Source: Saccharophagus degradans 2-40
Lineage (GTDB): Bacteria; Pseudomonadota; Gammaproteobacteria; Pseudomonadales; Cellvibrionaceae
Assembly: GCF_000013665.1 (NCBI RefSeq)
Contig: NC_007912.1
Location: forward strand, 4,399,684 to 4,463,683
Reading direction: 5' to 3'
Length of the DNA stretch: 64,000 nucleotides
The translations under genes were made by a program, and so were the position numbers. Under the pieces are notes generated by a model. It saw nothing but the letters and a program-made list of their open reading frames with translations. It was not told the DNA's origin and did not search any database. The first letter of the stretch is position 1; every line of letters starts with the position of its first letter. Below, piece after piece: positions 973 to 27,900 of the stretch.

Positions 973-2079
973 ATGCTCGACTGGGACACCCTAAACAACG
1001 CCAAACCCGCCCCTACTGGCACCACAACCGAGCAACCCCGCTCTGCCCTAGCAGGCCAAGCTGCCACCCCGAACGCGCAGGCCCCAGTTTGCGCAAGTGA
1101 CAAACGCGTGATTAACGGCCACACAGACATCAACCAATTAGCGCCCTTTAAGTACCCTTGGGCGTGGGACTTTTTTATAAACGCCAATAAAAACCATTGG
1201 ACCCCACTGGATATAAACATGTCGCAGGATGTGTACGACTACAAACACAACCTCACCGAAGCTGAGCGCCACATGTACGAAAATGTGCTGTCATACCTCA
1301 CCACCTCCGACATTTTAGCCATGCGCAACATTGGCCTTGCGGTGATGGAAAAAATGACCGCACCAGAACTACAAATATACCAAGCCCGCCAAGTGTATGA
1401 AGAAGCCCTGCACACATGGACCTACCAACACTGCATAGAAACCCTCGGCCTTGATCAAGGTGAAATATATAACCGCTACCGCGTGGTGCCAGAAATAAAC
1501 GCCAAAATACAAATGGCCAACCGCAGACTAGAAAGTATTTTGCGCAGCGATATAGACCTAACCGACCCAGACCAACTTAACAATTTTATATTGGCCTATA
1601 TCTTTTTTGCCGCAGTGTTTGAAGGCTGTTGGTTTTACAATGGTTTTAGCCCAATATTTGCTCTGCAGCGCCGCGGTTTAATGAAAGGCACAGCAGAACA
1701 ACTGCAATACATAATGCGCGACGAAACCATGCACTGCGCCTTTGGCATTCAAACCGTATCGCAGATTATTATAGAAAACTGCACCAACATAGATGTAGAC
1801 GCAATTAAAACCATGTGGGAAGAAGCCGACGAAGCCGAGGCAAATTACGCGCGCTATATATTACGCGAGCCAATTTTAGGCTACAGCGCCAACGACCATA
1901 TAGAACAGTTTAGATTTATCGCCAACCGCCGCGCGCGCCAGCTGGGCTTAGAAGAACCCTTCCCGCAGGCTAAATGCGCACTGCCTTGGCTAGATGAGCA
2001 AGCCAATATTCGCAAAGAAAAAAACTTTTTTGAAACCCGAGTAATTGAATACCAAGCGGGCGGACTAGAATGGGATTAA
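973..2079 (+). CDS. nrdB: Ribonucleoside-diphosphate reductase class Ia small subunit (R2/NrdB, Pseudomonas-type with long N-terminus)
   Basis: Supporting motifs are FKYPWAWDFF, an iron-ligand context (EGCWFYNGF...ETMHCAFG), and the typical R2 length and C-terminus. No adjacent nrdA is present in the window. Confidence 0.9.
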   Translation: MLDWDTLNNAKPAPTGTTTEQPRSALAGQAATPNAQAPVCASDKRVINGHTDINQLAPFKYPWAWDFFINANKNHWTPLDINMSQDVYDYKHNLTEAERHMYENVLSYLTTSDILAMRNIGLAVMEKMTAPELQIYQARQVYEEALHTWTYQHCIETLGLDQGEIYNRYRVVPEINAKIQMANRRLESILRSDIDLTDPDQLNNFILAYIFFAAVFEGCWFYNGFSPIFALQRRGLMKGTAEQLQYIMRDETMHCAFGIQTVSQIIIENCTNIDVDAIKTMWEEADEAEANYARYILREPILGYSANDHIEQFRFIANRRARQLGLEEPFPQAKCALPWLDEQANIRKEKNFFETRVIEYQAGGLEWD

Positions 2080-2229
2080 ACACGCGCTAACACTTGATGA
2101 AAGCTGGCTGCTATTAGCCGCGCATAACTCGGGGCCTCGGCGGTGCGCTACACCTTACAAAGCAGAGGACTTACACCTATTAATCTATTCGCCAGCTTCG
2201 CTTGGTGCACTGCCTGTCTTTAACTGTGT

Positions 2230-2724
2230 TCAAATTCGTTTTGGTAATAAATTGACTATTATTCGGCCTTTTACTTTCTCACCTTTTTTGAATGATGATT
2301 TTATAATGAGACTAGACAATTCGACGCTGTAAGTGTGATAACCGGCTTTCTGAACTAAAAGATAAACATCACCACCATAAAATCCAGTGCTTTCTTCGCA
2401 CGATTCTAGACCACCGCTAACTGGATCAAAACCATGCAATTGCAGAATTGGTGATAATTTTGTACCTCCGCTCGCATCGGTAATTCCTTCTACAGCGTGC
2501 TCTGGGACAACACTGTTCCATTCTTCCTTGGTAGCATCACCTTTTCGGCCGATTTTAATAAAACGTACATTAGCTCCAGAAACGTAATTGCTCCACGGCT
2601 CATAAACGGTAACTTCTATCTCAACAGGACCCTCTCCATCCCATTGCATGCCGTCGCACATTTCGTTCGATAAAAGCTGAGATGATATTAATAGTGTAAG
2701 TAAAAAAATAGTTATCTTTCGCAT
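2230..2724 (-). CDS. Small secreted hypothetical protein (signal peptide MRKITIFLLTLLISSQLL)
   Basis: The ORF track has a longer ORF (to 2868). An internal ATG at 2722-2724 is followed by a canonical signal peptide. No recognisable domain is present. Confidence 0.4.
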   Translation of the reverse strand: MRKITIFLLTLLISSQLLSNEMCDGMQWDGEGPVEIEVTVYEPWSNYVSGANVRFIKIGRKGDATKEEWNSVVPEHAVEGITDASGGTKLSPILQLHGFDPVSGGLESCEESTGFYGGDVYLLVQKAGYHTYSVELSSLIIKSSFKKGEKVKGRIIVNLLPKRI

Positions 2725-2760
2725 TGTAGAATTTAACGCCCAGCTAAGCCGCCGGAGCGG

Positions 2761-2835
2761 AGTTGATTGTTTTGTGCCAGCGTAGCTGAAAAGCACAAAA
2801 CGAGCAACGCAGTGGAGGTCGGTTTGAGCTGTTTG
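2761..2835. repeat. Hairpin repeat copy 1 (AGTTGATTGTTTTGTG...CACAAAACGAGC...CAGTGGAGG)
   Basis: Nearly identical 5' half to 4911-4950. It shares the GCACAAAA(C/G)(G/A)AGC...CAGTGGAGG motifs with 6221-6262. The internal inverted repeat is ttgttttgtg/cacaaaacga. Confidence 0.6.
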
Positions 2836-2918
2836 ATACTTATGATGACCTCCTCCTCCGGAGACCAATGGAAACCTTCTAAACTTAAATCACCACAACA
2901 AAAGTTAATTAAAGAAGG

Positions 2919-3975
2919 AGATCATCATATGAGATTTTATACCATTTCCCACAAACATTACTGCGGAATAGATTTGCATACCAAAATGATGTACGTCTGC
3001 ATACTTGATTCTGATGCTAACATACTGATTCATAAGAATATACCTACTAATGGTAAGGCGTTTTTAAAGCTCATAGCCCCCTATCGTGAAGACATTGTCG
3101 TAGGCGTTGAGTGCATGTTTTCTTGGTATTGGCTGGCTGATTTGTGCGCCAAAGAAGGCATCGAATTTATCTTAGGCCATGCACTTTACATGAGGTGTAT
3201 TCACGGCGGAAAGGCCAAAAACGATAAAGTTGACTCGGAAAAAATCGCACGCATTATGAGAGGCGGCGATTTCCCTCTCGCCTATGCCTATCCTGCCGAG
3301 CTTCGGCCTGTTCGCGACCTCATGCGTAGACGAAGCCATTTGGTTCGCATTAAGAGTGAGATTCAAAGCCATATTAGTATCACCAACTACCAATATAATC
3401 TTGAGCCGTTCGACAAAAACATCGTTCACAAAGGTAATCGCGAAGGTATAGCAGATCACTTCGATAACGCTTCTGTACGACTTAATGTTGAAACCGATAT
3501 TGCCGTTATGGACAGCCTTCACGATCAGATACGGAACCTCGAAAACTACATTATCAGGCATGCGAAAGACTACGATGGCCGAATGTTGTACCGATTAAAA
3601 ACAGTTCCTGGGATTGGCGATATTTTGGATTTAACAATCATGTATGAAATTCTATCGATCGATCGCTTTCCAACGGTTCAAAATTTTTGTTCATACTCCC
3701 GTTTAGTTAAATGTGCGAATGAGTCGGCTGGCAAAAAAATGGGGACATCAGGCTCAAAAATAGGTAACGCTCATCTAAAATGGGCCTTTTCTGAAGCGGC
3801 TATTTTATTCATACGTGGAAATGATAAAGCTCAGAAATATGTTACTAAATTAAGCAAGAAGTTTGGCAAAGGTAAAGCGCTGTCCATACTATCTCACAAA
3901 TTAGGACGCGCTATTTATTTTATGATGAAAAGGAACGATGTCTTTGATATGAATTACTTTTTTCGAAATAGTTAA
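2919..3975 (+). CDS. IS110-family transposase/recombinase (DEDD RuvC-like N-domain plus C-terminal Tnp domain)
   Basis: A strong RBS (gaaggagatcatcat) precedes the ATG at 2919. The motifs are MRFYTISHKHYCGIDLHTKMMYVCILD (the typical IS110 N-terminus G-I-D-x-H) and a C-terminus ...GIGDILDLTIMYEI...NAHLKWAFSEAAILFIR. Confidence 0.9.
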
Positions 3976-4145
3976 ATGTTTAGGGTAGCGTGTTTGAGCT
4001 AGCAGGTATAACTAGGGTGCCGAGCATAAAGATCCTAAGCTAAGTTATCCGTTTAAGCTCGAGCTTACTCTTAGCCTGATGAAAAAATGCCAACTCTCTC
4101 GCTTTGATTAGACAGAACACGCTACCCGCCCTACGCTTTTTTGAC
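3976..4145 (+). ncRNA. Candidate structured ncRNA (bridge-RNA-like) immediately 3' of the IS110 recombinase gene
   Basis: A long stem is formed by gggtagcgtgtt (3983-3994) and aacacgctaccc (4116-4127), followed by a GC-rich stretch and a T-run (gccctacgcttttttg). A gtttgagct motif is shared with the element's left flank at 2823-2831. This is structure only, with no expression data. Confidence 0.3.
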
Positions 4146-4469
4146 GTGTGACTGCCCCTTGACTGAGTGATCTATAACTGGATACAAAACACCGTAAGCC
4201 CGATTCTTTGAAGCGCCAGATCCAAGGGTAACCGATAAATTTCTAGTAGCGCCTTAGTAAAGCTAAGGCATCCAGATTACTTCAGCGAATGAAAGCGTCG
4301 AACGTTAATTTGGACTGACTCTCAATAGGTGTTTGGTACAGTTACCACTAAGCCTTCCATGAAATTATCGTCAGTAGAAACATTCAAAATTGCTTTTTTA
4401 TTAACTCTAGGCATTAAACCAAGGGTTTTGGTGAGTTATTGTTCTTTGACAGGTCCGGTCATATAGGTG

Positions 4470-4862
4470 TTAGCAATTGATTGCAGTAAAGTCTTCATAA
4501 CAATGATGAACAAACTCCAAGTTTTTCCCACTACTGAATTTGAATTTGGCAGTGACTTTCTCGTCGCCACCAAAATATTCGATTCCATCTAACAGAAACC
4601 CAATTACTCCATTTAATTCACTAAGGTTCAGCAATACCAAACAACTTCCTATATTGTCGTTTACAGGTTCAGACGGAGATTCCCGCCGCCAAAATATAGT
4701 ACTGCCATCAAAGCAGAGCTTTGACCAGTTAGAATCAAACTTGAAATAGATAGTATTGGCAGGATCGGTTATGGAATCACCTTCCTGATGTTGAATCAGG
4801 CAAAGTCCAGAACACTTTTTCCCAATAACTTCAGGCTCATCGCCATTTAAGTGATACTCCAC
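4470..4862 (-). CDS. Hypothetical protein (130 aa) between the IS110 recombinase gene and hairpin repeat copy 2
   Basis: A plain ORF with no recognisable motif. It is a possible passenger gene of the element. Confidence 0.35.
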   Translation of the reverse strand: MEYHLNGDEPEVIGKKCSGLCLIQHQEGDSITDPANTIYFKFDSNWSKLCFDGSTIFWRRESPSEPVNDNIGSCLVLLNLSELNGVIGFLLDGIEYFGGDEKVTAKFKFSSGKNLEFVHHCYEDFTAINC

Positions 4863-4910
4863 AACTGGTTCCTAGTGTACTGCTAACGCCTATGTAAGAG
4901 GCATTTTTGT

Positions 4911-4950
4911 AGTTGATTGTTTTGTGTTATCAAACACAAAACGAGCGGCG
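4911..4950. repeat. Hairpin repeat copy 2 (AGTTGATTGTTTTGTGTTATCAAACACAAAACGAGCGGCG)
   Basis: Direct repeat of 2761-2803. It forms a perfect hairpin: ttgttttgtgtt / aacacaaaacga. Confidence 0.6.
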
Positions 4951-5000
4951 TAAAAAATGTCCTTCTTGACATATTTGTTATATTTTCTGATACACAGAAC

Positions 5001-6101
5001 TTATTCAAAACTGCAACTATCATATGTTAGATAATTTGGTATTGAATTCATATTTGAGAATGAAAATGATTTTTTTAAAACTTCACTGTTTACTACATCA
5101 GAGTCAGAAAACTGAATAGATGTTAACCCAGCTAGGGATTTAATACTTTCATCATTTATGTAAGATTCGTGAATGTTTTTACTGATATATACATCTTCAG
5201 ATAAGCTGAATATTATAAAATTGATGGCAGCTAACCTCTCAGTCTTAGATAACTTTCGAAACTGCTTGTAAAATGACCGATATCTTTTATCATTTTTGTC
5301 AATAAAGAGCATTATTATACTTTGTGACTCTAAAGGAAAAACTGAAACGTGTAATGACTGTAGCTTGTATTTTTTTGATTTATTGTAGACATTATTAATG
5401 ATGTTATCATCAAGATCAAAATGTAAAGACAACTCACCTTGAAATGCCATTGGGACAGTGTAATCTAGCTTTTCGTAGTAGAATAGGTAGTATTCATCTT
5501 TATAGCCTTTATCTATGATTCGTTTAGCTCGCTTAAAACTCCTGATATATTCATTTAAATCAAGTCTATTTATTTCATTTGTTTCAATAATATATTTTTC
5601 CATAAAACTACCGGTAGAAGCTCCATTGAATCCAGGTATTCCATCTTTCATTTTATCGTACAAAGAAACCTCAAATAGCCGCTTATCTATATTCCTCAAG
5701 TGGTTTTTCATTGCTATTTGAGCGATCATTTTATCTGTTGGGTCATTGATGTAATTATCCTTGTTTTCGTATTCTCTAAATATGGCACTGTCACAATTTC
5801 TACAAATAATACGAAATGTTCCAGAATTATTTACTCCTTTCTCAGAATCAATAAATGGCAACTCTATCAATTCGTTGTTCGTATACAATTCACCGTCTAC
5901 TGAAATATTTCTAAGGAAAGAAGCAGGCACTGAATGAGAATTGCAAAACTGAGTAGTGTCTTTTGCGCAATAGAAACATTTCGACGGTTTAGATTCCATC
6001 CTGCTTATTGAAGATATTTTGCTTTTAAGCTTCCTGAATTCTATTAAATCAGAATTCGATGAACTATCAGAATGGTCGCCTAAATTAAGTAGTTTGCTCA
6101 T
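5001..6101 (-). CDS. AT-rich hypothetical protein with an N-terminal Cys-rich Zn-binding/HNH-like motif (CFYCAKDTTQFCNSHSVP...ICRNCD)
   Basis: A 366-aa ORF with no competing frames. Its GC content is much lower than the surrounding DNA. It has paired CxxC clusters with an intervening SHxVP segment reminiscent of HNH (DHIxP) nucleases. The remainder is Lys/Asn/Tyr-rich and unknown. Confidence 0.6.
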   Translation of the reverse strand: MSKLLNLGDHSDSSSNSDLIEFRKLKSKISSISRMESKPSKCFYCAKDTTQFCNSHSVPASFLRNISVDGELYTNNELIELPFIDSEKGVNNSGTFRIICRNCDSAIFREYENKDNYINDPTDKMIAQIAMKNHLRNIDKRLFEVSLYDKMKDGIPGFNGASTGSFMEKYIIETNEINRLDLNEYIRSFKRAKRIIDKGYKDEYYLFYYEKLDYTVPMAFQGELSLHFDLDDNIINNVYNKSKKYKLQSLHVSVFPLESQSIIMLFIDKNDKRYRSFYKQFRKLSKTERLAAINFIIFSLSEDVYISKNIHESYINDESIKSLAGLTSIQFSDSDVVNSEVLKKSFSFSNMNSIPNYLTYDSCSFE

Positions 6102-6176
6102 AATTACCTTTGGGCTATCGGAATCGAATTTTTCTCAGCGCCAAGAAACCGCGGAAATATAACGCAGAGCTAAACG

Positions 6177-6262
6177 GCGCACAAAGTGGAGCTGCTTTTG
6201 TGCGAAAATTTGCGAAGCAAATGCACAAAAGAAGCGGAGCTTTGGGCGTCCAGTGGAGGCCA
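6177..6262. repeat. Hairpin repeat copy 3 (gcgcacaaagtggagctgcttttgtgcg ... atgcacaaaagaagcggagc...cagtggaggcc)
   Basis: It shares the GCACAAAAG/CTTTTGTGC hairpin and the gcacaaaa-gaagcggagc...cagtggagg segment with the repeats at 2780-2822. It lies upstream of the Y1 transposase gene. Confidence 0.5.
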
Positions 6263-6640
6263 CAGGCCGGAACGGTGTTTTAGCGTTTTGTTATGAGAGA
6301 CCACGAACCATACCTACAACACCTTAAATATTTTATTACCAACTAAATTGATTAGTAACCCATACATGCTTTTGATTTTACTTATAGCCGCGTTGCCTTT
6401 ACACCAAAGCAGTAGCACCAACCTTCTGCGCTTTAAGTAGGATTTGCAAAAAAGCGAAGAAAATACTCGCTAAAATTGCGTTTAGCCTAGTACTTTTTCA
6501 GATGGAATGGAAGTGAAAAACCGAGGAAAAAGCCATCCCATAGCGCATACAAATTCACAAACCCCAGACACCCACTTTAACCATTGACACCCCATTAATG
6601 CAACGCTATAAATAACTGTATATTCAGACAGGAGGTCGAC

Positions 6641-7618
6641 ATGCCCAAACCAAGGAAAATGCAGGTTTCTTTAGATGCCACACCATACTATCACTGCACT
6701 TCACGCTGTGTACGCAGGGCCTTTTTATGTGGCTTTGATATGGTAACCAACAAAGATTACGAACACCGTCGACAATGGGTTGAAGATCGCATTCATTTAT
6801 TAGCCGAGGTATTTTGTGTTGATGTATGCGCCTATGCGGTGATGTCTAATCATTTACATCTCGTGCTGCATATCAATCAGCAAAAAGCTTGTGCACTATC
6901 GGACTTGGAAGTGTGCCAACGCTGGCATCGGCTATACAAGGGGACTTTACTTACTCAACAGTTCGAGCAAGGCAAAGCACTCACTCGAGCCGAAGTTGAG
7001 GCTGTAAAAGCTAGAATAGAAGTATGGCGCGCGCAGCTGCACGATATTAGCTGGTTTATGCGGGCACTTAACGAGCCGATTGCGCGCATGGCCAACGCAG
7101 AAGATAACTGCACGGGGAGCTTTTGGGAATCGCGCTTTACTTCGCAGGCGCTATTGGATGAAAAAGCACTGGCAGCGTGTATGGCGTATGTAGATTTAAA
7201 TCCGGTACGAGCCAAGATGGCCGCTACGCCCGAGGATTCGGAGCATACCTCGATCAAGCTGCGCGTAACGCAGGCGAAGAACAAAAAACAACAACCTACC
7301 TGTTTATATCCATTTGTAGGCAACCCACGCCAACCTATGCCCGAAGGCTTACCATTTAAACTGGCCGATTATTTAGAGCTAGTAGATTGGACTGGCCGAG
7401 CAATTCGCGCCGATAAACGCGGCGCCATTAATACAAGCTTACCCCCTATTTTAAGTCGCCTTGCAATACCTACTGCAGAATGGCTAACACTCACTACACA
7501 ATTTGAACAGCGTGTTTCGACGTTTGCCGGTTCCGAGCGTGCCATTCGGTTAGCCGCCGAGGTATTGGGGTATAAAAAACCTCCTGGTGTGGGGCAGGCT
7601 AAGCGATTTTTTGCCTAG
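6641..7618 (+). CDS. Y1 (HUH) transposase, IS200/RAYT-like long form (325 aa)
   Basis: The HUH motif is SNHLHLVLH. The catalytic Tyr motif is YVDLNPVRAKMA (Y1_Tnp hallmark Y-x3-NPVRA). A C-terminal extension is present. The gene is flanked by hairpin repeats upstream and tandem repeats downstream. Confidence 0.8.
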   Translation: MPKPRKMQVSLDATPYYHCTSRCVRRAFLCGFDMVTNKDYEHRRQWVEDRIHLLAEVFCVDVCAYAVMSNHLHLVLHINQQKACALSDLEVCQRWHRLYKGTLLTQQFEQGKALTRAEVEAVKARIEVWRAQLHDISWFMRALNEPIARMANAEDNCTGSFWESRFTSQALLDEKALAACMAYVDLNPVRAKMAATPEDSEHTSIKLRVTQAKNKKQQPTCLYPFVGNPRQPMPEGLPFKLADYLELVDWTGRAIRADKRGAINTSLPPILSRLAIPTAEWLTLTTQFEQRVSTFAGSERAIRLAAEVLGYKKPPGVGQAKRFFA

Positions 7619-7802
7619 CTCTTTTATTTAATTCTTTAAGACTTTCACCTTTAGTGGTTTCGCTCGTCTTGAGTTTGGGGTTTTGGCGGATGGGTCGTTT
7701 TAGCCCTTTGGCCATACCTTAAAATTCCAGATACTAGCAATTAACTAAACTGATCGAACCGGTGCGCTTGCGTTTCTTCAACGAGTGGGTGTCATGTTTT
7801 TT

Positions 7803-7848
7803 GTGTTTTTTGATGTTTTTTGCGATGTTTTTTGCGATGTTTTTTGCG
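7803..7848. repeat. Tandem 12-mer repeat (GATGTTTTTTGC x3-4)
   Basis: The sequence is tgtgttttttgatgttttttgcgatgttttttgcgatgttttttgcggg. Confidence 0.8.
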
Positions 7849-7879
7849 GGAGCCTTCAACTAGCCTATATATGTTTACT

Positions 7880-7990
7880 AGTGCCTGTCTCGATTAGTAT
7901 TTCGATTAGTATTTCCTGTCTCGATTAGTATTTCTAGTGCCTGTCTCGATTAGTATCGATTAGTATTTTGTCTCGATTAGTATTCTTTAT
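7880..7990. repeat. Complex tandem repeat with core TCGATTAGTATT (about 6 copies) and variable CCTGTC / CTAGTGCCTGTC prefixes
   Basis: Read directly from the sequence. It lies in the convergent intergenic region between the Y1 transposase and the GspG-like gene. Confidence 0.8.
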
Positions 7991-12909: not shown

Positions 12910-15900
12910 TTAGGGCGCGAAGGCATTAAGGATGTCGTCGCGCGCAGTACTGTTGAATAACAGGCCTTTTTCTTTGGCACCGGCTTCGCGCATATAACCA
13001 GAGCGAACCATTGGGCCATCGCCTAACTCATCTTCTGCAAATACAAATGGATGTAGCTCATCGCCATCCATATGTAATAGTTTTGCCAAGCCATCTGAAA
13101 TGCTATAACCAACGGTATCAATACCGCCTTTGGTCATTTTATTTGCTGCCACCTCTGCAAAGAAAGCGCGCTGACCGTTGTCGTTTACACGCTCAAACAT
13201 TACAAAGATATTTGCATCGGCATACACACCATTATCAGATACTAAGTAAGCTTTAACATGGAAACCACCTTGGTGATCGTAACCATCACCAACCCATAAG
13301 CTTACTTCGACGCTGGTACCTAATTGGCCCATAGTGTTAATAACGTCATCCAAGCTTGTGGCTAACACAGGTGTGAATGTACCGTCGCCATTGTCGGTCC
13401 ACTGGGTAGTTACACCATTTGCGCACATTAAGCTTTCTGGTAAGCCATCGCCGCCCCAATCGCAATCAAACATCATGCTGTCTTCTTGCGTGGTAATTTC
13501 GGCAATGTAGGCTTTAGCACCACTGTTAAAGGTATCGGTTTCTAAAAGGCCAACTTCGTAAGCGTCATCAAGCACCGCCCAAATGGGTACGCCGAACATA
13601 TCTAATTCAAACAATTCAACATGTTGCGGGTCGATGGTAGATACATTGCCGGCAAAAGTATTTTCAAGAATGGCTACTTGATCTACATCGACAAAGTTGC
13701 TGATAAGTTTCACTTCATCAACCATATCGATACCGTTGTCGGTGATATACATGGCGCCTTCCATCTCGGCCGAAATATCTACCCAATCGTTTGCGGTATC
13801 AAAATCGTAGCCGAAGATAGTTTCTACAATACCAGTAGCTAAAGCACCGTATTCGAACTCGGCTTGGTCTGGTTGACCATCACCGTTTTCATCCCACATA
13901 TCACCCCAGAACCACGCTACACCGTTATCGATAACAGTTTTTTCTGCAACCTCTGCTGGCAAGGTGCCCATTACATCGGCGGCGCCATTACACACTACGC
14001 TGCCATCATCTGGGCCGTGGTTTTCGGTGAAGCTAAAGCTGAAAGTGCCACTGCCTTCTGAGTAAACACCGGTAGCGCTAAAGTTACTATCGCCAATGAA
14101 GGTTAAGCCACCGCTTGCATCCATAATGGCAAACAAACCGTGATCATCTTCGTCGTCACTTTCAATATGGAAGAACACTTGTGTGCCTACGCTTTCGATT
14201 TCCATAAATAGCAATTCGTCTTCGTTGGCTACACACTGCTGGGTATCCCAGTCGTATTCTTCACTACCCGTTTGATGAGCTACTTCTACCATGTAGAAGC
14301 CGCTCATGTTTGGCACCATTGCGTCACAAGCATCACCAATACCGTTGCTATCAGCATCTGCTTGATCTTGGTTTGGCACTATGCGGCAGTTATCTACCAT
14401 GTCGGAGATGCCATCGGAATCTACATCCATGTCAGACTCTGAGCCACATGCTGAACCGTCTACGTTAAAACAGGCTGGTTCAGTGCTGTCACAAGGACTG
14501 CCATCTGGGTTGGTACAGCCGCCATCACATGGGGTGCCGTCTGGGTTGGTACAGCCGCCATCACATGGGGTGCCGTCTGGGTTGGTACAGCCGCCGTCAC
14601 ATGGGGTGCCGTCTGGGTTGGTACAGCCGCCGTCACATGGGGTGCCGTCTGGGTTGGTACAACCGCTACCACATGGTGTGCCATCTGGGTTCACACAGGC
14701 TTGCGAATTATCTTCAAGCACGCGTACCTGTACATCAAAACCACTATCGAACAGGTCAACCATCCAGCGCACACCATTGGCGTCGGTGTACTCTAGGTAG
14801 TAGCCGCGATTGGCTTCACGGGGGAACTCAAACATTGCGCCGGTTTCAAATTCGCCGGTTGTTTCGTTAAACGTTCCCAACCCCACATCGTTAGTAGTAT
14901 CAGCAGTGCTAACGATTAAACCGCTAGCAGTTACTTCTACATTAAACGCCCCCATGTCTGTCATTTCGGGGGTTAGCTTGCCGCCATCATCCAAAAATAG
15001 TGAGGCAGCGCCACCGTCACCTAAGAAGAACTCCGCCACAACAGCTGGGCAATCGAAACAGTCGCCAGGGCCACCAGGGCCGCCGTGCACTTCCCACCAT
15101 TCCAAGTGGCCTTCGCCGTTGCCGCGCAAGTCAGTGAAGATATTCATTTGCTTATCGCTAAAGGTAAGTGTGAATTCACCCCAGCCCATGCTTTCTTCAA
15201 CCGTACCCGTATAAGTACCATCTTCATTGGCGGTAAGGTCTTGGTGCCCCATGTCGGTCATTTGAGTTACACCTTCTAGTGCATCGCTAAAGGTAAATAC
15301 CCAAAGTCCTTCAAGATACGTAGCGCTTACATCGGTTGTGCCATCACCGTTAATATCGTGATCACCCGCCAAACTCTGACGAGGTGGAGGCAAGTACCAC
15401 GCTAATTTAACAGTGCCATTGCGAATGTAACGCACATCGAAATCGACAGGTTGGCCGCTATTGTGAGCAATAAACATAAAGGCAGGTGAAGAGATATCTA
15501 AAGTTGCCTCGCCTTCGCCGTGGTAGCTATCGCCACCTGCGGTTAGGGTAAAGTCTGCCCATAACTCAACATTGCCTTCGTGATTAACAAAGCTATTGAT
15601 GTTTAGCTCAATGATTTTTGAGCCTTGATCTGGGTCTACCAATACATAGAACCCAGGCATGCTCAAATCAATATTACCTTGGTCGTTAACAGGACCTTCT
15701 ATTACTAGCGCCATTGGGAAGTTTTCTGAAACACCCATGCTGGTGCCATCGCCGCTTCCGGTAAAGAAGTCCGTCATTACTGACGTGTCATCCATATCGC
15801 CGCAGCTTAGTGAAAACTCATCGGTAGAAATTACACCGCAGGTTGGCGGAACAATTTCTGCGTCTGGGTTGGAAAGGTCCACATTAAAGCTTACTACCGA

Positions 15901-18900
15901 GCCACTGGTTAGCTGGCCAGAAGTAAGGTGGTGGCGACCGCCGTCTACAAAGGCTTCGGTCACGCCGGTGCCTAAGTTGAGGGTCGCCGACGGTGCGTCA
16001 TCAGCCGCTACAGATCCAACGGTAAACAGGGTGTTTTCGTCGGTACAACCTTCTGTAGATGGCAATGCTTGTCCACCGTCAGCACTGCTTGCCAAGCACA
16101 CGGTGCTACCCGCCTGCAGAACAATTTCGTTATCGATATAACCGCCGCCGTCGCCGCCGGTTGTTGTTACATCTTCTACTGTGAAGCTACTGATACCGAT
16201 AAAGTCGCCGGCATCGTTTTGTAAACGTGCATTGAGGGTGAAGTCACAGCTGCGACCACCTAACCACGATAGGTGTACGTTAAAGTTAGGACGGACATCA
16301 CGGCCAGTTTCATCGCGTGCAGGTGCATAGAATTGCACGTTTTCTTCTGGACGATAATCTTCACTAGGCAATGAAGCTGGGCAGTAAACAACTAGCTCGT
16401 ATTCGAACGCACCGGGGATGATGGCTCCGCCGAATTTTAATTCGCGGTTTACATCTAGGCTGGTGAGTTCGCTAAAGCTTGTAGGCTCTTCGCTGCCAAT
16501 TTCTATGGTCATATCGGTTAGTACGCTAACTGAACTTGGCACTAACACGCCCATTTTACCGCTTACATCAGGGCGCGCGGGGCAAGCTTCGCTACCGCAC
16601 ATAAAGGCATTGCCGTTTAGATCCACTGGAGCGCGGAACTGCACTGTGTATTCAAAATCTACACGCTGCGGCAATACATCCATTGTTGCGGTTGGTACTT
16701 CCAACTGGAAGCTAACGCGATCGCCAGATCGTTGTTTTAGCGAAACAACCACGTCGCCGGCAACATCGCGACCACTACATTGATAATCGCTGAACTCGCC
16801 AAAGTCATTAATGGTGGCTGGTGTACAGGTAAACGTAAGTTGCTCGCCTGCATCCGCACCAAATATTGCGCTATCAATTAATACCGCTTGAATGTCACCA
16901 GGGTAGAGGTTGAAGGTTTCAACAAGGAACGACATATCCACGCCACCTTCACCATCGGTTTGCGCCAGTGAGGTTACGTGCAAGCCTTCGTTAAAGCCGC
17001 CGCCACCTGCAGAGCCACCAGTAGACGGTGCGGTGCCTGGTACGTTTGGATCATTGTCGTTTGGATCGAACAGTGCAGGTACGCCATCGAAGTCGGCGTC
17101 GAACACATTACCCACAACCGTATCTGGCGCTGCAGCTATAGCAAGGTTCGGCATATCTGCTGGGCAGGTACGGCCTTCATCTAAGAAGCACACCACATTG
17201 CGTGGGTCCAACTCGCCGCTATCGTTAGCGATATCTGCAAATGGCACTACATCTAAACTAATTTCAAAATTAGCATGCGGGTCGTCGGCAGGCAGATGGC
17301 GAACAACACGCGCTAAGAATGCAGGAGAGTCGGGTTCTGCTGCCATGTCATCAAATATGGCGATGATGTTGTTGTGCTTTAAGTTACCCACAAAACTGGT
17401 GGAAAACTCAGGTGCAGGGTCCATCACATATGCCAAGGTTTGTTTGTTAAAGCTTAGTTTTACAAAAGTGATACCAGCGCGACCTGCATTAATGCGCACA
17501 GGAATGCTGCTGAAATCGGGTGGGTTACCAAACACTGTGTCGAAATCTTCAATGGAGCTAATGTTATCGCCAAAGTGGTTACTTGCGTAACGGATGAACA
17601 CACCATCGGTTGCACTTGCTAGTGCGTTATATGGCTCTACGTTGCCGTCAAAGCTAAGCACTTGGTCTGGCAACCAGTCTGGGCCCATGTAGTCGGTTGG
17701 GTTTTGCAATACTACCCAATCGCCATAGTTCATTAAGTAGTGACGCATTCCACCGTCACCAGCACTACCTGCGGGCACATCTTCAAATTTCGCATCAGGA
17801 GCCTCTAAGTTGCGCAAGCTGTTAACCATGGCGAAACCAATATCAATAAACTGCTGTTGGTTGCCATTGGGGTCGTCGAAGCTATCCATAAAGCGCAATT
17901 CAATTACCCAGAATGCGCCACCGGCATCGCGCATTAAATACAAGCGATCGTGCTCGAATGATACGGTAGGGTCGAGTGCAATTTCTGATAAGAGTATAGA
18001 GCTATCAGCTACGGCTTCTGCTACTACGCTACCCACATTCGCCCCAAGTACTGAGTGCAAACCGAACAATGGATTCAAGCCTGAGGAATCACTAAGAGAT
18101 AACTCCAACTCCCCGGCGTTGTAACCACCAAACATTGGTGCAAAGCCAACACCGTTAGCGCCTACAATGCTCACACCGTTTGCAGTGGTTTCGAAGGTGA
18201 AATCAACGGTACCTTGTTCGTCACTTTCTTCCGCTGCGGTCAGGTAGATAGGTGCACCAGGAACGGTAAAGTTAGAAACATCAATCCCTTCGATTGAACT
18301 TGTGCCATCGCCATTAGGACGACTTTGATCGGCCACAATGCCTAGGCCTGGAACATTAGTGAAGGCCTGGTCTGGACCAATAAACATGGGGTACATGGCA
18401 TCGCATAAGTTAAAGTCTGGTGCGTAGCCATCTACATAAAAGAACAATTCAGGAAGTTGCGTTTGATAGCTGGAAATGCCGAAGCGCAATACATAATCGC
18501 GGCCATAGTTTTCGCCATCTTTCGACGCAAGACCTTCGATAGTGTAAGTGCGACGCACAGGGCCACTACCACTTTCTAGCGTACTGGTAATGGTTGCATC
18601 TAGCTTATCGCCTTTGAAAAACTCACCTGTTGCATGATTGTAGCTAACCGCGAACACGCTCAGGTTTAAATTTTGTTGCGCATTGCTAGATAAGGGGTCG
18701 GCACCGTCGAAACGTTCTACCGTACAGCTAATATCCACCGTATCGTTACGCGATCCTAAGTCATCGGCAAAATCTTCTGCATTGTGTTCTTTAAACTCGG
18801 GCAACTCGGGCAAGCCATCGATAGAACCTAACACTTCTGCACGTGCTGCTGCGAAAAATTCACCATTACTTATTGCTGTTACATTTAATAAAGAAGATAC

Positions 18901-21420
18901 AAGTGACGCTACGGTGACAGATTCACCGGCCACCATCACTTTGTAATTGTTAAAGTTAGGCACCATGCGAGAGTGGGCAGTGCCTGCTGCATCAGTAATG
19001 GAAATTTCTCTAAAATAACCGCTACCGCTATCAATGAGGTAATTACTTTTTAGTAACAAATCCATTAAGAACAGTGCTGAGCGAATATTAATAGAGCTTT
19101 CACTGGTAAGCGTGCGACCAAACAACGTTGAAGGTACAGAAGACGTTAACCCTCGCGCTACACGGTCACGTGCACTGATGTAATCAGGCGCGGCTGGTGT
19201 AGTTGCACTGCCTAATACTAAGGTGCGGTAGTCGGTAGCGACTTCTGGGTAAACATCTAATAGAACATTTACTAAATCAAAATTCACACCCTGCTGGAAT
19301 TCAGCACGCTGGATAGCAGACTGCACAGCGTTGGGGGCAAATTGTGCGTAAAAACTTAAACGCTCGGTTAATAGTGCCGCCGTTTCTGTAGCAGAAGTAC
19401 CTAAGGTTAAGCTAAGTGCTCGCACAAGCTCTGAGCTGCTTATTACATCAGCACCACCGGCTAAGGGGGTTAAGCGATCATTAAATATTGGGAACCCTTC
19501 TGGCGTTAAATGCACAGATTCAGTTGCCCAAGTAAAGCTGCTGGCAAGTACAGATGCCAAACGCTTCACTTTAATAGTGCTGTCTTTGTTCGCTACCAAT
19601 TTTGCAACAACCGCTTGCGACACTAAGCTCGAGTCTTCTAAACGGCGCGACAATTGATGGTAAAGGCGCACGCGGTCAACCAAGTTGAAATCCGCTTCGC
19701 TGGGTACTGCATCGGGGTTAGTAATATTAGCAAAGGCACTATCTAAGTTAGCCTGAAACTCTTCTTCACTTAACCCACCCATTAAGCGTGGAATTAAATC
19801 GGTAAAGGCAGGCACATAATAAAGTGGTGGCTGCGGTACACCGTTATCATCCAGTACGCCAAGGGCTGCGTCTGGGTCGGCGGTGTATTTACTGGTTACC
19901 TCTAAATCACCCTCACCTATTTTAAATAAACGGATATTGCGATTACCAAAACCGCGGCTACCGGGTAATAAATTATTGGGGATGTGAGCCGGCGCATTTA
20001 AGTTGATTGCAACCACACCTGCGTCGTTGGCTTCGTTTGTTTCTACAATTACCGCCAAGCCCATACTAATAAAGAAGCGCTGAAGGGTTTGCGTTAACTG
20101 ACGATTACGCTCTGCCTCTGCAGCAGCTAGAGCTGCACTTGCATCGGCACCATCTTCTAAGTCAAACAATTCGTTCAGGCTACCGCTTACTTCGGCTTCG
20201 GTAATTTTAGCTTGCGACTCTTCGGCTATTTGTTCGTTTAGCGTCGCTTCCAAGCCAGAAAGTAAACCTTGCTGCTCACTGTCTAATGAAGAGCTTAAAG
20301 TACTTTCTTCATCTTCGACAACTTCGTCAGCTTTTACTACCGAATTTTGCAGCTCAATAAGTTCCTCGTCGGATACAGTTTCACTAGTTAGTAAAGCATC
20401 TAATGACCTAACTTCGTCAACGGAGGCCTGCACCTGCATTTCGCTTTCCTGCTGGGCAATAACACTAGCAACCGATTGCCCCTCTGGAATTTCGATGACA
20501 CTATCTTCAGCCTCTTCAATAACACGCGCAATTTCTTGCGATACCGTTGAAATTACCGATTCTGTTAGCGTGGCTACCGTTTCTTCAGAAAAGCCCAATT
20601 CATTAAGCGATTGAATTGACGTTTTAATTTGATCAACAATTGTTTTAACTACACGGTGAACAATTGGGTCGACGGTTACAGGCTTAGGAAGATTCGTTTC
20701 CTCGTCAACATCGTTAGGGTCGGCAATCGATTGAATTGCCTGTGCTGTTTGCGATTCACCTTCACCGCGTACGATTAAAGCGCGTACTGCTATGCGCCCC
20801 AAAGCTCTAAACGCAGCAAGCACGTCATCTTCAGAAGTCTCGGCAGTAACAAGCCCGCGCGCAATTAAATAAGGGCGCACATCCGCAACCGTTACTGAGT
20901 ATGCACCGTTCTCATCGGTTCGCACCGTTGCAATCGGGTTGGCAAAATTCACATCGGACAACAAGAAGAGCGAGACCAACGCACTGGCTGCCACCATGTC
21001 ATCGCGCGTTAGAGTGTCGCCTGCTCGGCTTAACTTTTGCGATTTGCTCATTTTGGCGATCGCATCAGAAGGAGCCGAAAGCTTGCGAACCACTTTGGTT
21101 TGCGTAGCGCTTTCTGTTGGGTAAGTAGCAACCGTACCAGATAAAGACACCTTAGATTGTGGTTCTGGTTCCGGTTCCGGTTCAGGCTCTGGTTCCGGCT
21201 CTGGCTCTGGCTCTGGCTCTGGCTCAGGTTCTGGTTCCGGCTCAGGTTCTGGCTGTGGCTGGGGCTCTGGTTGCGGTTCTGGCGTGGTGACACCGCCGCC
21301 ACCTCCGCCACCTCCGCCGCCGCAACTTGAGAGCGATAAAATCGTACCCGAGGCGATGAGCAAGATAAGCATCACCCTCACGACTTTCCTCAGAAAGCTT
21401 CCAACCACATTTTCATTCAT
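12910..21420 (-). CDS. Giant (2836 aa) cell-surface lipoprotein with a poly-Gly/(PE)n linker and thrombospondin type-3 Ca-binding repeats; putative adhesin
   Basis: The lipobox is LSLSSC, followed by G10 and [19 protein letters not shown].... There are 5 tandem [12 protein letters not shown] units plus [33 protein letters not shown] (TSP3 DxDxDGxxDxxDNCPxxxNxxQxDxD signature). It is Asp/Gly/Thr-rich throughout. It is one uninterrupted 8.5-kb ORF. All plus-strand ORFs inside it are antisense artefacts. Confidence 0.85.
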
Positions 21421-24966: not shown

Positions 24967-27900
24967 TTACGTCGCGGGCTTATCAAGGCGATTATTTTTA
25001 ACCTGCGCTTCCAATTCGCGCAGGCGGCTAGATACTTCACTCATTTTTTCGTGCGTGCGCAAATCTATGTCTAGCTTTTTATCCATACTGCGCACTAGCG
25101 GAAAAATGCTGTGCTCAATGGTTTCAGCCAATACACTTAATATTTTATCTAAGCCAGGCACAGGCTGGTTCACCACCTCTACTTTAGGCGCCTCTGCAGG
25201 TTTATTTAAACCCGAAGCCAGCGCATTTAAGCCATCACCAAACTTACCAAGCGCTAACCGGAGCAACTTGCTATCGCGCTGTGCTTTTTTAACCGCTGCA
25301 TCATCATTGGCAGCAGCAAGCATTTCTTGCGCGCGCGATTCGGCAGTTGTCGCAATGTGATTGACGCCCTGCACCAAATCCACCAACTGCGCCACCACTT
25401 TTTGGCCAGTGTCGGCATCGTCGCCGCCCATAGCTTTGTTACGTAAAAAGTCTGCTTTAATTTCCTGCCAACGCTGGGTTTGCTCATCGGTCATATTGCC
25501 GCGCAACTCAGCTAACTTAAGTAAGTTTTCTTCTGCTCCACCGGTTAACAATTGCGCTTCGCCAAGGTAGTGATCTTGAATAAGCTGCATAAGCTCTTGG
25601 TTATTCATCACTGCCGATACCTTCTCCCCCATTTTATTCATGTTGCGGTAGCTACCCTGCAACTTAAAAGGCGGTTCGGTGCGATACTTATCCGCTTGGG
25701 CAGCAGAAATAATATATTGCTGGTTAATTTTAAGAATCACATCGCGAATAGCGAACATTTTGCGCAGCACATCGACTATTTCGTTAATTTCTGCACCACT
25801 GTATTGATGCTTTAAGTCGGTGGTTGCAACGTCTTTGCCCTCTGCTAATTTAATTAGCAAATACACATCGGCAATATCGCGTGCAGCCAAAGGTGCCAAC
25901 ACAGGGTTGGAGGTTAAGCTATTTTCGATGTAACTCATGGCAAACTGCTCGTCCATACCACCCAGCACATCACCTAGGTTGTAAATATCGGCGCGGTTAG
26001 CCAACATATCTGGAATTTTAAATACTTCACCAGATTCAGTGTATGGGTTACCAGCCATCACTACGCAGAATTTTTTACCGCGCATATCGTAAGTTTTGGA
26101 CCGGCCTTTCCAAATGCCTTCTATGCGGCGCGTGCCATCACACAGCGAAATAAACTTCTGCAAAAACTCTGGGTGCGTGTGCTGAATATCATCCAAATAC
26201 AACATCACGTTGTTGCCCATTTCTAACGCTAGGTTAAGCTTGTTCAATTCTTGCCTTGCGGTTGCGTTGGGTGCTTGCTCTGGGTCTAACGACAACACAT
26301 CGTGGCCTAATGACGGGCAATTAATTTTCATAAAGATTAAGCCAAGGCGGCTAGCCACGTATTCCATCAGTGTGGTTTTACCGTAACCGGGTGGCGAAAT
26401 CATCATCAACAAGCCCATCAAATCGGTGCGCTTGTTTTCGCCCACCGTGCCCATCTGCTTGGCGAGGTTATCGCCAATTATGGGTAAATAAGCTTCATTA
26501 ATTAGGCGGTTGCGCACAAACGAACTAAGTGGTCGCGGTTTAAATTCCTGCAAGCGCAATGCATTGCGCTCGCGCTCCGCTATAGTTTGGCGCACCGCTA
26601 GGTATTCGCGGTAGCCTTTTACAAAAACGGTGCGATGGTAATCTAAACGCAAGAAGAACTCATCGACAGCTAACGATAAACGTCTATCTACTATACGTTT
26701 GTGGTCGCCCATTAAGCCGTCTATTCGCAACTGTAGATCGGCCTCAGTTGGACGCCGGTCTATACGCTCGTCAGCATTGATCATAGCGGCAGCTTCTGGG
26801 ATATACCGCTCCAATTCGGTTAGCTTGCGCTCTTTAACCATGGCCGCCAACCACGCACACGAAAGGTTCCAGCGCTCTGCAGGCCAGCCCATCATTTTTT
26901 CTAACGCAACTTGGAACCGGCGCCAGCTATCGTCGTCGAGCGCGCGCTTTAATTCTTCAGTTAATAGGCTCGCATATTTACTACCTATAAACTCTGTGCG
27001 CTCTCGGCCCAATTCACACACTAAGTAATCGGCTGCGCGTCGCAGTTCTATGTCTTCTGCAGCTATAGGGTGGTAAGTTAAAAACTCACGCATTGCTGCG
27101 TAGACTTCATCCACTAAGAACTGATGCGCTTCGTTGCTGGCAAAATACTCGCGCATACGCGCAGCCGATTGCGCACGCTCGCCCCAGGTTTCATAGGTGA
27201 GACGTTTATTTTGTAGCTGGTCAGATATACGTTGGATATTCGCCCAAAACACTTGCGCCAAGCCCCTGCTTTTGGGGTCGAACACTAACAAATCTGCGCT
27301 TTCCATTGCCGGCACTATTGCCTGCAAAATTTTTACTGCATCGTGATCGTGAATGCCTTTTTCGTAACCCTCTTTGTAGCGTGGCGTCGCGAATTCGCGC
27401 ACCAAGCTGAGCGCTGCGTTCTCATCCTGTAGCGTGAGGTTGAGCTTCTCTAAACTTAAACCCGCTTCTTGTAATTCAGCTGCACGAATAATAGTGGCAG
27501 CGAGAAACTCCGCCCGGTAAACCGTGTCGCTTTCAGATTCGAGCGATACCTGCCAATAGGGCTTTAATGCTAGTAGCGCTTCGTCTTCGATACTTTCAAA
27601 ATAATCTGTACCTGTTAAGTGGCAGCTCAGCCCTTCGCCACGGGGGATAATGGTGAGATCTAGCTCCTGCGTGTTAACGCTAAATTTATGGCGCGGGCCA
27701 AGCTTAATAACAGAACCGCCGCCTTCATAGATATCGGATTTATCGCGCAATACACGCTGTGATTGCTCTTTAATCGCTTTGAACTTGGCTTCAATGTCAT
27801 CTGCCTTAACCGCTGCGTTTAGCTCGCGCAACTGCTCAACAAATTCGCGAACTTTGTGCACCATAGTATCGGCAGCAAAGTACGCGTTCATTTTATCGGG

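Follow-up and report, generated by a model that had tools for sequence, protein, structure and literature searches.

Positions 2835-4468 (plus strand) of a 64,000-nucleotide stretch of Saccharophagus degradans 2-40 (contig NC_007912.1; referred to below as the window and numbered from its first letter) very likely represent an intact insertion sequence (IS) of the IS110 family, inserted in an integron attC site and equipped with a non-coding region for a two-domain guide RNA. The ends of the element were defined by alignment with eight other, independent copies, the attC target was recovered by rejoining the flanks, and a comparison of about 100 relatives shows two conserved RNA domains in the tail that follows the transposase gene. 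An earlier interpretation made from the letters of the DNA (the sequence-only reading) had proposed that this tail encodes a bridge-RNA-like guide; the conserved compensated structure and the presence of short segments covarying with the flanks agree with that proposal. RNAs with guide segments in the non-coding end of IS110/IS1111 elements have been shown and are called seekRNA or bridge RNA (PMC11187229, PMC11208160).

Ends of the element and its transposase

The insertion sequence is 1,634 bp long (GATACTTATG...CATATAGGT), with its left end at 2835 (GATACT...) and its right end at 4468 (...ATAGGT). The alignment included five copies with an identical protein (84% identical to that of the window) at five different places in one metagenome (L002-L006), and two further relatives, L001 and L007, in other contexts (proteins 93% and 88% identical, respectively). 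Similarity to the window starts at GATACTTATGATGACC (2835) and stops at GGTCATATAGGT, and the sequence outside these limits differs in every copy aligned (L001-L007 and the window). GTTA directly follows the element in nine of nine close copies, and of 167 loci retrieved, 86 share these ends. The junctions read ...CTGTTT/GATACT and ...ATAGGT/GTTAGCA and have at most T/G in common, so that the ends are ambiguous by 1-2 nt; there is no target duplication, and terminal inverted repeats are absent from the junctions. The non-coding parts comprise 94 nt upstream of the transposase gene and 493 nt (3976-4468) downstream. The tail had previously been estimated at about 170 nt, but the aligned copies retain it past 3976 up to the right end. 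The features of the element that are needed here are as follows:

2838-2850, plus strand: left member of the subterminal inverted repeats, ACTTATGATGACC; aligned with the reverse complement of 4457-4468, it agrees in 10 of 13 positions
2929-3975, plus strand: transposase gene, 348 aa, with DEDD/RuvC-like and Tnp domains (Pfam, NCBIfam and homologue coverage)
4446-4451, plus strand: -35 box TTGACA, 17 nt from the right end
4457-4468, plus strand: right subterminal inverted repeat and terminus GGTCATATAGGT (alignment of copies)

These ends are incompatible with the layout in the sequence-only reading, in which the element ran from hairpin to hairpin (2761-4950), carried the ORF (open reading frame) 4470-4862 as a passenger and used the word gtttgagct in a ~170-nt tail as its guide. 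All copies stop at ...ATAGGT/GTTA and differ beyond it; the right end lies about 410 bp before the second hairpin, and the supposed passenger is outside the element, being an ordinary gene cassette. Together with the observations on gtttgagct presented below, some of which speak for that layout, this makes it very improbable.

Relatives have subterminal inverted repeats that match at 11-12 of 12 positions at the equivalent place; the length typical of the IS1111 subgroup is about 11-13 bp. In the broad lineage the repeats are followed outwards by terminal extensions of about 7-9 nt at the left end (GATACTCAT) and 4-5 nt at the right end (TAGGT), longer than the rule for IS1111 elements (7 or 6 bp and 3 bp) allows; as drawn for the window, the repeat begins 3 nt inside the left end and reaches the right end, a figure that depends on how an imperfect repeat is drawn. 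A generic search for inverted repeats was too noisy for defining ends in other loci, and a motif-anchored search was used instead. In five loci it took an internal block (module C, see below) for the right end, and these five were removed; in distant relatives the right end was set at the first GTT after the inverted repeat.

In 77 of 78 loci the -35 box lies 17 or 18 nt from the right end, and GATACT forms the start of the element in 111 loci. Junction promoters are known for IS110/IS1111 elements such as ISEc11 (PMC11187229). By analogy, an excised circular copy of the element would have the junction ...CATATAGG(T)GATACTTATG and would carry the promoter TTGACA-N17-GATACT.

The transposase gene is intact, as previously supposed, with the start corrected from 2919 to the ATG at 2929, eight bases downstream of the ribosome-binding site, GGAG (2917-2920). 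The protein matches PF01548 (DEDD_Tnp_IS110; E 8e-14), PF02371 (Transposase_20; E 5.5e-16) and NCBIfam NF033542, "IS110 family RNA-guided transposase" (171.6 bits, cut-off 140), and is of full length compared to thousands of homologues (100% coverage). The catalytic residues D15, E61, D99, D102 and S266 do not vary among 36 aligned homologues. There is a weak match to the C-terminal domain of IS621 (8wt6; E 1.7e-5), in which the serine of ES-AG aligns with that of ESG in IS621.

In the ISfinder protein set the transposase is 55% identical to ISGsu4 (Geobacter sulfurreducens) and 53% identical to ISMahy12 (Marinobacter) over the full length, and it shares with them the motifs YCGIDLH, LGHALYM and HGGKxKxD. 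The identity to ISKpn4, an attC-targeting IS1111 element that has been studied by experiment, is about 19% in a partial alignment (residues 182-343). The part of the published identity matrix available to us gives 14-21% identity of ISGsu4 and ISMahy12 to 49 IS1111-type entries and 15-18% to the IS1111-attC group. A tblastn search of plasmids yielded a best match of 58% identity, in a metagenome-assembled genome, and no annotated close relative. In the literature searched we found no targets or RNAs for ISGsu4 and ISMahy12, and no attC targeting outside the ISPst6 group. The element is thus classified as an intact IS110-family insertion sequence with IS1111-type architecture from the ISGsu4/ISMahy12 lineage; judged by protein identity, it is distinct from these two, being well below the isoform level of ISfinder.

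The attC target

The sequences flanking the element are the two parts of a disrupted attC site, and two uninterrupted sites follow:

2731-2834: left part of attC1, starting with ATTTAAC (2731-2737) and including a hairpin at 2762-2808; it ends in the 6-nt left target, CTGTTT (2829-2834)
4469-4475: right part of attC1, core GTTAGCA (TGCTAAC on the cassette strand), including the TAA stop of ORF 4470-4862
4470-4862, minus strand: cassette ORF, 130 aa, no Pfam match, outside the element
4881-4983: attC2, uninterrupted, TGCTAAC...GTTATAT, 103 nt, -21.7 kcal/mol, closed by AAC/GTT
6157-6296: attC3, 140 nt, aligned with attC1 and attC2

Rejoined attC1 (2731-2834 + 4469-4475) is a 111-nt imperfect palindrome, ATTTAAC...GTTAGCA, taken from a join of 2725-2834 and 4469-4482; its sequence is GAGCTGTTTGTTAGCA. 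Its fold as DNA has -24.7 kcal/mol and pairs AAC with GTT. The site can be aligned with attC2 and attC3, both uninterrupted, and its TTGA + 7 nt + GTTA spacing is that of attC2. The empty site is predicted to read ...GAGCTGTTT/GTTAGCA.... The insertion point, TTT^GTTA in the frame of the element and TAAC^AAA on the cassette strand, lies beside the conserved core, and the element is oriented opposite to the cassette genes. A different placement, with the GTT inside the element and TT as the core, was rejected: the rejoined site loses the attC core and the spacing of attC2.

The two related hairpins noticed earlier on either side of the gene are real (2762-2808 and 4902-4959; they share a 43-nt repeat, 72% identical, and a 15-nt repeat), but they belong to attC sites and are neither repetitive extragenic palindromic (REP) sequences nor ends of the element. 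The suggestion that they mark the target holds for the left one, which is part of the disrupted site; the right one merely belongs to the next attC. One minus-strand ORF lies between each successive pair of sites (2230-2724, 4470-4862 and 5001-6101), none of them with a Pfam match, and the stop codon of ORF 4470-4862 falls in the core of attC1 (TGC-TAA-C on the minus strand). The array, located directly after nrdB (973-2079), is a small attC cluster without integrase, judging from the window ORFs tested.

Could the flanking hairpins be REP-like chromosomal repeats after all? The sites number three or four only, no integron integrase was found in the window, and a crude scan of the window for attC by regular expression and folding was too strict and missed the accepted sites. 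An attC site is an imperfect palindrome of about 55-140 nt that ends in RYYYAAC and GTTRRRY, and each cassette has one. Set against the doubts are the nYYYAAC...GTTRRRY-like ends of the sites, their variable lengths (103-140 nt), the single same-strand ORF in each interval, the stop codon in one core, and relatives of the element in cassette arrays, one of them near a bona fide integron integrase. We therefore regard REP-like repeats as improbable and the sites as attC.

The same target is seen in the relatives. Their flanks share the form CGTCnGnTGCAGCnnnTT / element / GTTAGGC, and the rejoined sites of 64 relatives fold at -24.0 kcal/mol compared to -15.6 kcal/mol for shuffled sequences, AAC/GTT closure being observed in 25 versus 7 of the 64. 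The neighbouring genes are runs of small same-strand ORFs, and L172 (84%-identical protein) lies in a cassette array, 8.2 kb from a divergent integron integrase (TIGR02249; 463.6 bits, cut-off 265). From the form of the flanks, the fold of the rejoined sites, the cassette context and the integrase near one copy we conclude that the whole lineage homes to attC, with the transposase gene always opposite to the cassettes.

Some further observations concern these arrays. Other IS110-family genes occur in the arrays of L168 (8474-9418), L170 (5145-6203) and L171 (3304-4173 and 4707-5765), with lengths of 314, 352 and 289 aa, on the same strand as the element and opposite to the cassettes; several IS110-family lineages thus seem to colonise the same arrays. 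In the window, a possible fourth attC-like site spans 2087-2234, where AAGCTGGC (2101-2108) pairs with GCCAGCTT (2192-2199). Inside it, 2061-2173 on the minus strand gives a sub-threshold Rfam match to group II intron D1-D4-6 (21.6 bits, gathering threshold 49; E 0.002), which could be an intron remnant or equally a chance match. To the right of the cluster, a 325-aa ORF (6641-7618, plus strand) has a weak match to Y1_Tnp (IS200-like tyrosine transposase; E 0.0016, 19 bits, cut-off 23).

RNA domain 1 and its proposed target guides

An alignment of 43 non-coding regions shows conserved blocks with variable hairpins between them. The first of the two domains, proposed to bind the target, contains the following features:

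3983-4127, plus strand: RNA domain 1, in which the stem P1 closes an internal loop and inner hairpins
3992-4000, plus strand: motif GTTTGAGCT, identical to 2822-2830
4006-4012, plus strand: right-target guide GUAUAAC, with GYCUAAC as the consensus in the family; its complement is the attC core GTTAnnn (top strand)
4100-4106, plus strand: left-target guide CGCUUU + G, identical in sense to the 6 nt that end the left flank and to the junction G

P1 is the long stem already recognised in the sequence-only reading, with 12 of 12 positions paired between GGGTAGCGTGTT (3983-3994) and AACACGCTACCC (4116-4127). Its significance rests on compensatory change in relatives and not on the fold of the single sequence, which is unremarkable (z-score, z, of -0.95 for 3976-4150 and -1.96 for 3980-4130). 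Over 81 distinct 5' arms, cognate arms pair at -26.2 kcal/mol and non-cognate ones at -13.7 +/- 5.3 kcal/mol. For 11 sequences of the window subfamily RNAalifold predicted 29 pairs in domain 1, and compensatory double changes occur in 24 of these. The plus strand is rich in G-U pairs, which indicates an RNA of the gene's sense. In the consensus, an internal loop lies between a short CUA/UAG helix atop P1 and an inner helix, P2; its 5' strand includes GUAUAAC (4006-4012), and its 3' strand includes CGCUUUG (4100-4106), followed by AUUAGAC. With 32 diverse domain-1 sequences, MAFFT and RNAalifold yielded no structure, since the central part misaligns. The T-run reported after the stem is present, six T at 4137-4142, 9 nt past P1 in the stretch that links the two domains; no site resembling a terminator was detected there.

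To assess the guides, the loop segments of each element were paired with its own flanks and compared with shuffled pairings. For targets this control is fair, as an insertion site is not passed on together with the element. The left guide, defined as the six bases preceding the G of UUGAUU, gives an identity diagonal over six consecutive positions (z 3.0-5.3, n=100); summed over ten positions, it has 4.47 matches compared to 3.62 in shuffled pairings (z 7.3), and none of 5,000 shuffles reaches 4.47. The right guide has 6.26 matches over nine positions compared to 5.80 (z 4.2, or 4.9 with G-U pairs; n=61), and the bases preceding UAAC show complementarity to right-flank positions 5-6 (z ~3). 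Guide and target switch together: GCACAAC faces GTTGTGC in L063, GCAUAAC faces GTTATGC in L092, and GCCUAAC faces GTTAGGC in L066 and L152. Most complementary bases (TAAC/GTTA and TT) are invariant and thus uninformative for covariation; in the window only UAAC of the right guide pairs, with GTTA. Of the two guides, the one complementary to the top strand is located 5' of the one complementary to the bottom strand, and both meet at the insertion point. As an aside, the non-coding region of L090 (protein 85% identical) agrees with the window over about 115 nt past the stop codon before it diverges, and its first 200 nt contain no UUGAUU anchor; this copy is broken or else results from an assembly join.

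An alternative explanation would be that the transposase recognises attC by protein-DNA or structure-specific contacts, as the integron integrase does, the tail serving as transposase-binding DNA sites or in mRNA stability or regulation. Indeed, attC is conserved in shape more than in sequence, the complementary bases are mostly invariant, and the variable guide positions match in only ~45-50% of cases. Matching to the own flank nevertheless exceeds that to shuffled flanks (z 7.3 and z 4.2), specific compensating switches are seen (L063; L091 and L092), the G-U-rich compensated helices point to RNA, and RNA guidance has been experimentally shown for other attC-targeting IS1111 elements (PMC11187229). 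We consider recognition by protein alone to have a small chance of being correct and prefer guidance by the loop segments of domain 1.

The guide originally suggested was the 9-mer gtttgagct (GTTTGAGCT), which does occur both in the left flank and in the tail, one base away from where it had been placed (at 2822-2830 and 3992-4000). Its nine-base match to the flank is exact and rare by chance (shared words of at least 9 nt occur in 0.2% of non-cognate guide/flank pairs), and L001, the closest relative, shares the RNA segment and carries GTTTGA in its flank. These points also favour the hairpin-to-hairpin layout described above. The match of the window is, however, an outlier, the sole one among 92 cognate pairs with a shared word of at least 8 nt. 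In the family, both the in-register comparison and the register-free longest common word give z 2.1, and the guide/flank matrix has no covariation diagonal for this segment. GTTTGA is also present in the flanks of L005 and L006, whose RNAs lack the motif, and the motif itself is mostly base-paired, covering the top of P1, the GAGC conserved family-wide and the 3-bp CUA/UAG helix. It was therefore not accepted as the guide; the segments that covary are 4006-4012 and 4100-4106.

A weaker version, in which 3992-4000 is a third, accessory guide pairing with the inner (L') box of attC beside the two loop guides, seems to us doubtful, with perhaps more in its favour than the other alternatives. The full match is found in a copy whose loop guides fit poorly (5/7 and 4/7), AGC is conserved both in the RNA (in GAGC) and at the matching place of the flank, and z 2.1 is a weak positive signal. 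The missing covariation diagonal and the pairing of the segment in the consensus structure argue against it. The two loop guides remain the preferred target guides.

RNA domain 2, the proposed mechanism and related systems

The second domain is probably the donor-binding part of the RNA, as suggested by matches of its segments to the ends of the element:

4148-4345, plus strand: RNA domain 2, proposed donor-binding domain, closed by GUGACUG (4148-4154) and CAGUUAC (4339-4345)
4172-4181, plus strand: second CUAUAAC-UGG motif, in the context GAGY, spacer, nTAAC, TGG as in domain 1
4234-4246, plus strand: GAUAAAU followed by UUCUAG, candidate right-donor guide, complementary to element positions 4-10 (ACTTATG, 5/7)
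4321-4336, plus strand: module C, CUCAAUAGGUGUUUGG, candidate left-donor guide, in which AUAGGU+G (4325-4331) equals the right end ATAGGT plus the junction G

RNAalifold predicted 40 pairs for ten sequences of the window subfamily, 14 of them compensated. Folding of the single domain-2 sequence was not significant; the closing stem that it predicts covaries in relatives (GGCTGC/GCAGCC, CCCTGC/GCAGGG and others). The 5' side repeats the layout of domain 1, namely GAGY, spacer, nUAAC and UGG, and ACUGGA of the second UAAC motif is predicted to pair with UUCUAG (4241-4246).

For the 4234-4246 block, complementarity at element position 7 has z 7.7 and is present in 68% of sequences, with per-position values of 0.51-0.94, while module C is identical to the last 6 nt of the right end at 0.67-0.97 across relatives and varies along with it (ATAAGT; ATAGAT in L091 and L097; ATAGGC in L032). 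Shuffling is not a valid control for these numbers because element ends and RNA are inherited together. The UU that comes after AUAGGU+G matches the target GTT, and AUAGGU + G + UUUGG (4325-4336) parallels the left guide + G + AUUGG of domain 1. Module C and 4234-4240 may thus be the donor guides, a proposal in which we have less confidence than in the target guides. The block CTCAATAGGTGTTTGG (4321-4336), which mimics the right end plus the attC core, is the one mistaken for the true end in L103, L113, L121, L131 and L137.

In both domains the bases following the guide on the 3' strand match the partner DNA, GAU (element start) in domain 1 and GUU (target core) in domain 2. By analogy, this resembles the handshake principle of IS621. 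Each 3' strand may be taken to read an integrated junction rather than a substrate, the left flank + GAU and the right end + GUU, respectively.

Several observations weigh against the interpretation as a whole. The inverted repeat is weak in the window copy (10/13), and the window contains just one copy of the element and no integron integrase among the ORFs tested. Rfam 15 gave no match to a bridge or seek RNA family, either with a permissive E-value over 2000-6000 or, for the entire window, at gathering thresholds. The identity at the four variable positions of the left guide is only 43-50%, the window site matches 5/7 positions of its left guide (CTGTTTG) and 4/7 of its right guide, and in distant relatives pairing at core positions 1-3 is true by construction, owing to the GTT-based definition of the end. 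In domain 2 the donor-guide statistics are confounded by shared descent, and the variable bases of the second UAAC motif do not covary with the right flank (z 1.1), though its TAAC is complementary to GTTA. Finally, RNAalifold pairs AGGUG of module C with CCCCU (4155-4159) instead, a pair that covaries (C-G in seven sequences, U-A in three).

We propose the following mechanism. The non-coding region would be transcribed on the plus strand into a two-domain guide RNA of the seekRNA/bridge RNA type, which the transposase would bind. The two loop guides of domain 1 would each pair with a different strand of the attC target, one to the left of the insertion point and the other to its right, and the element would be inserted beside the core without target duplication. 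Since segments of domain 2 match the right and left ends of the element, the same RNA would hold the excised circular copy, which could also bear the junction promoter described above.

The closest functional parallel is the IS1111-attC group (ISPst6, ISKpn4, ISPa21 and ISPa25). Like the window element, its members insert site- and orientation-specifically at one end of attC and have subterminal inverted repeats and a long 3' non-coding region, and the guide order of the IS1111 seekRNA (top-strand guide 5' of the bottom-strand guide) is that of the window RNA (PMC11187229). However, members of that clade are at least 74% identical to one another (ISPa25, 46%), whereas the window transposase, with ~19% to ISKpn4, lies outside the clade; their seekRNA has 82-96 nt plus a longer precursor, compared to a conserved RNA of ~360 nt in two domains here. 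The lineage appears to have come to target attC independently of the known IS1111-attC elements.

With IS621/IS110 bridge RNA systems the element shares a DEDD/Ser recombinase and an RNA with internal loops (PMC11208160, PMC11208158). In IS621, as proposed for the window RNA, one loop strand pairs to the left of the crossover with the bottom strand, and the other pairs to its right with the top strand; separate target and donor parts, as proposed here, and bases beside the guide that match the partner DNA are also common to both. The window RNA differs in its position (downstream of the gene, while the IS621 RNA is upstream), in its reversed guide order, in its length of about twice that of the IS621 bridge RNA, and in that the cross-matching bases come after the guides that pair with the bottom strand; in the protein, only the C-terminal domain is detectably similar. 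Group IIC-attC introns also home to attC by RNA-DNA pairing (PMC3001079), but their mechanism (a retrohoming ribozyme) is unrelated, and they have no similarity to the window element.

Elsewhere in the window, two tandem-repeat arrays lie in the intergenic region 7794-7984, one with a 12-nt unit TGTTTTTTGCGA in about 4 copies and the other with a 31-nt unit containing TCGATTAGTATT in about 3.6 copies. Two very large minus-strand ORFs are located downstream, at 12910-21420 (2,836 aa) and 24967-30303 (1,778 aa).

The biology of RNA-guided IS110/IS1111 elements has been established since 2024, and what is added here is modest: a distantly related lineage, a larger two-domain RNA, and attC targeting by it. 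More tentatively, the deep-branching ISGsu4-like lineage (less than 20% identical to IS1111-attC elements) might be an independent integron parasite, spread over many phyla and provided with an unusually large two-domain RNA; a single RNA may then be able to recognise the empty target as well as the junctions of the inserted element, so that integration and excision would be coupled. As IS110/IS1111 recombinases are under development as programmable genome-insertion tools, natural guide diversity is useful, and what this lineage contributes is a compact enzyme of 348 aa together with a larger RNA of a distinct type, whose guides can be read from ~100 natural element/target pairs. For integrons, the findings mean that environmental cassette arrays are colonised by a second, unrelated lineage of attC-homing elements, whose insertions can split attC sites and immobilise cassettes.

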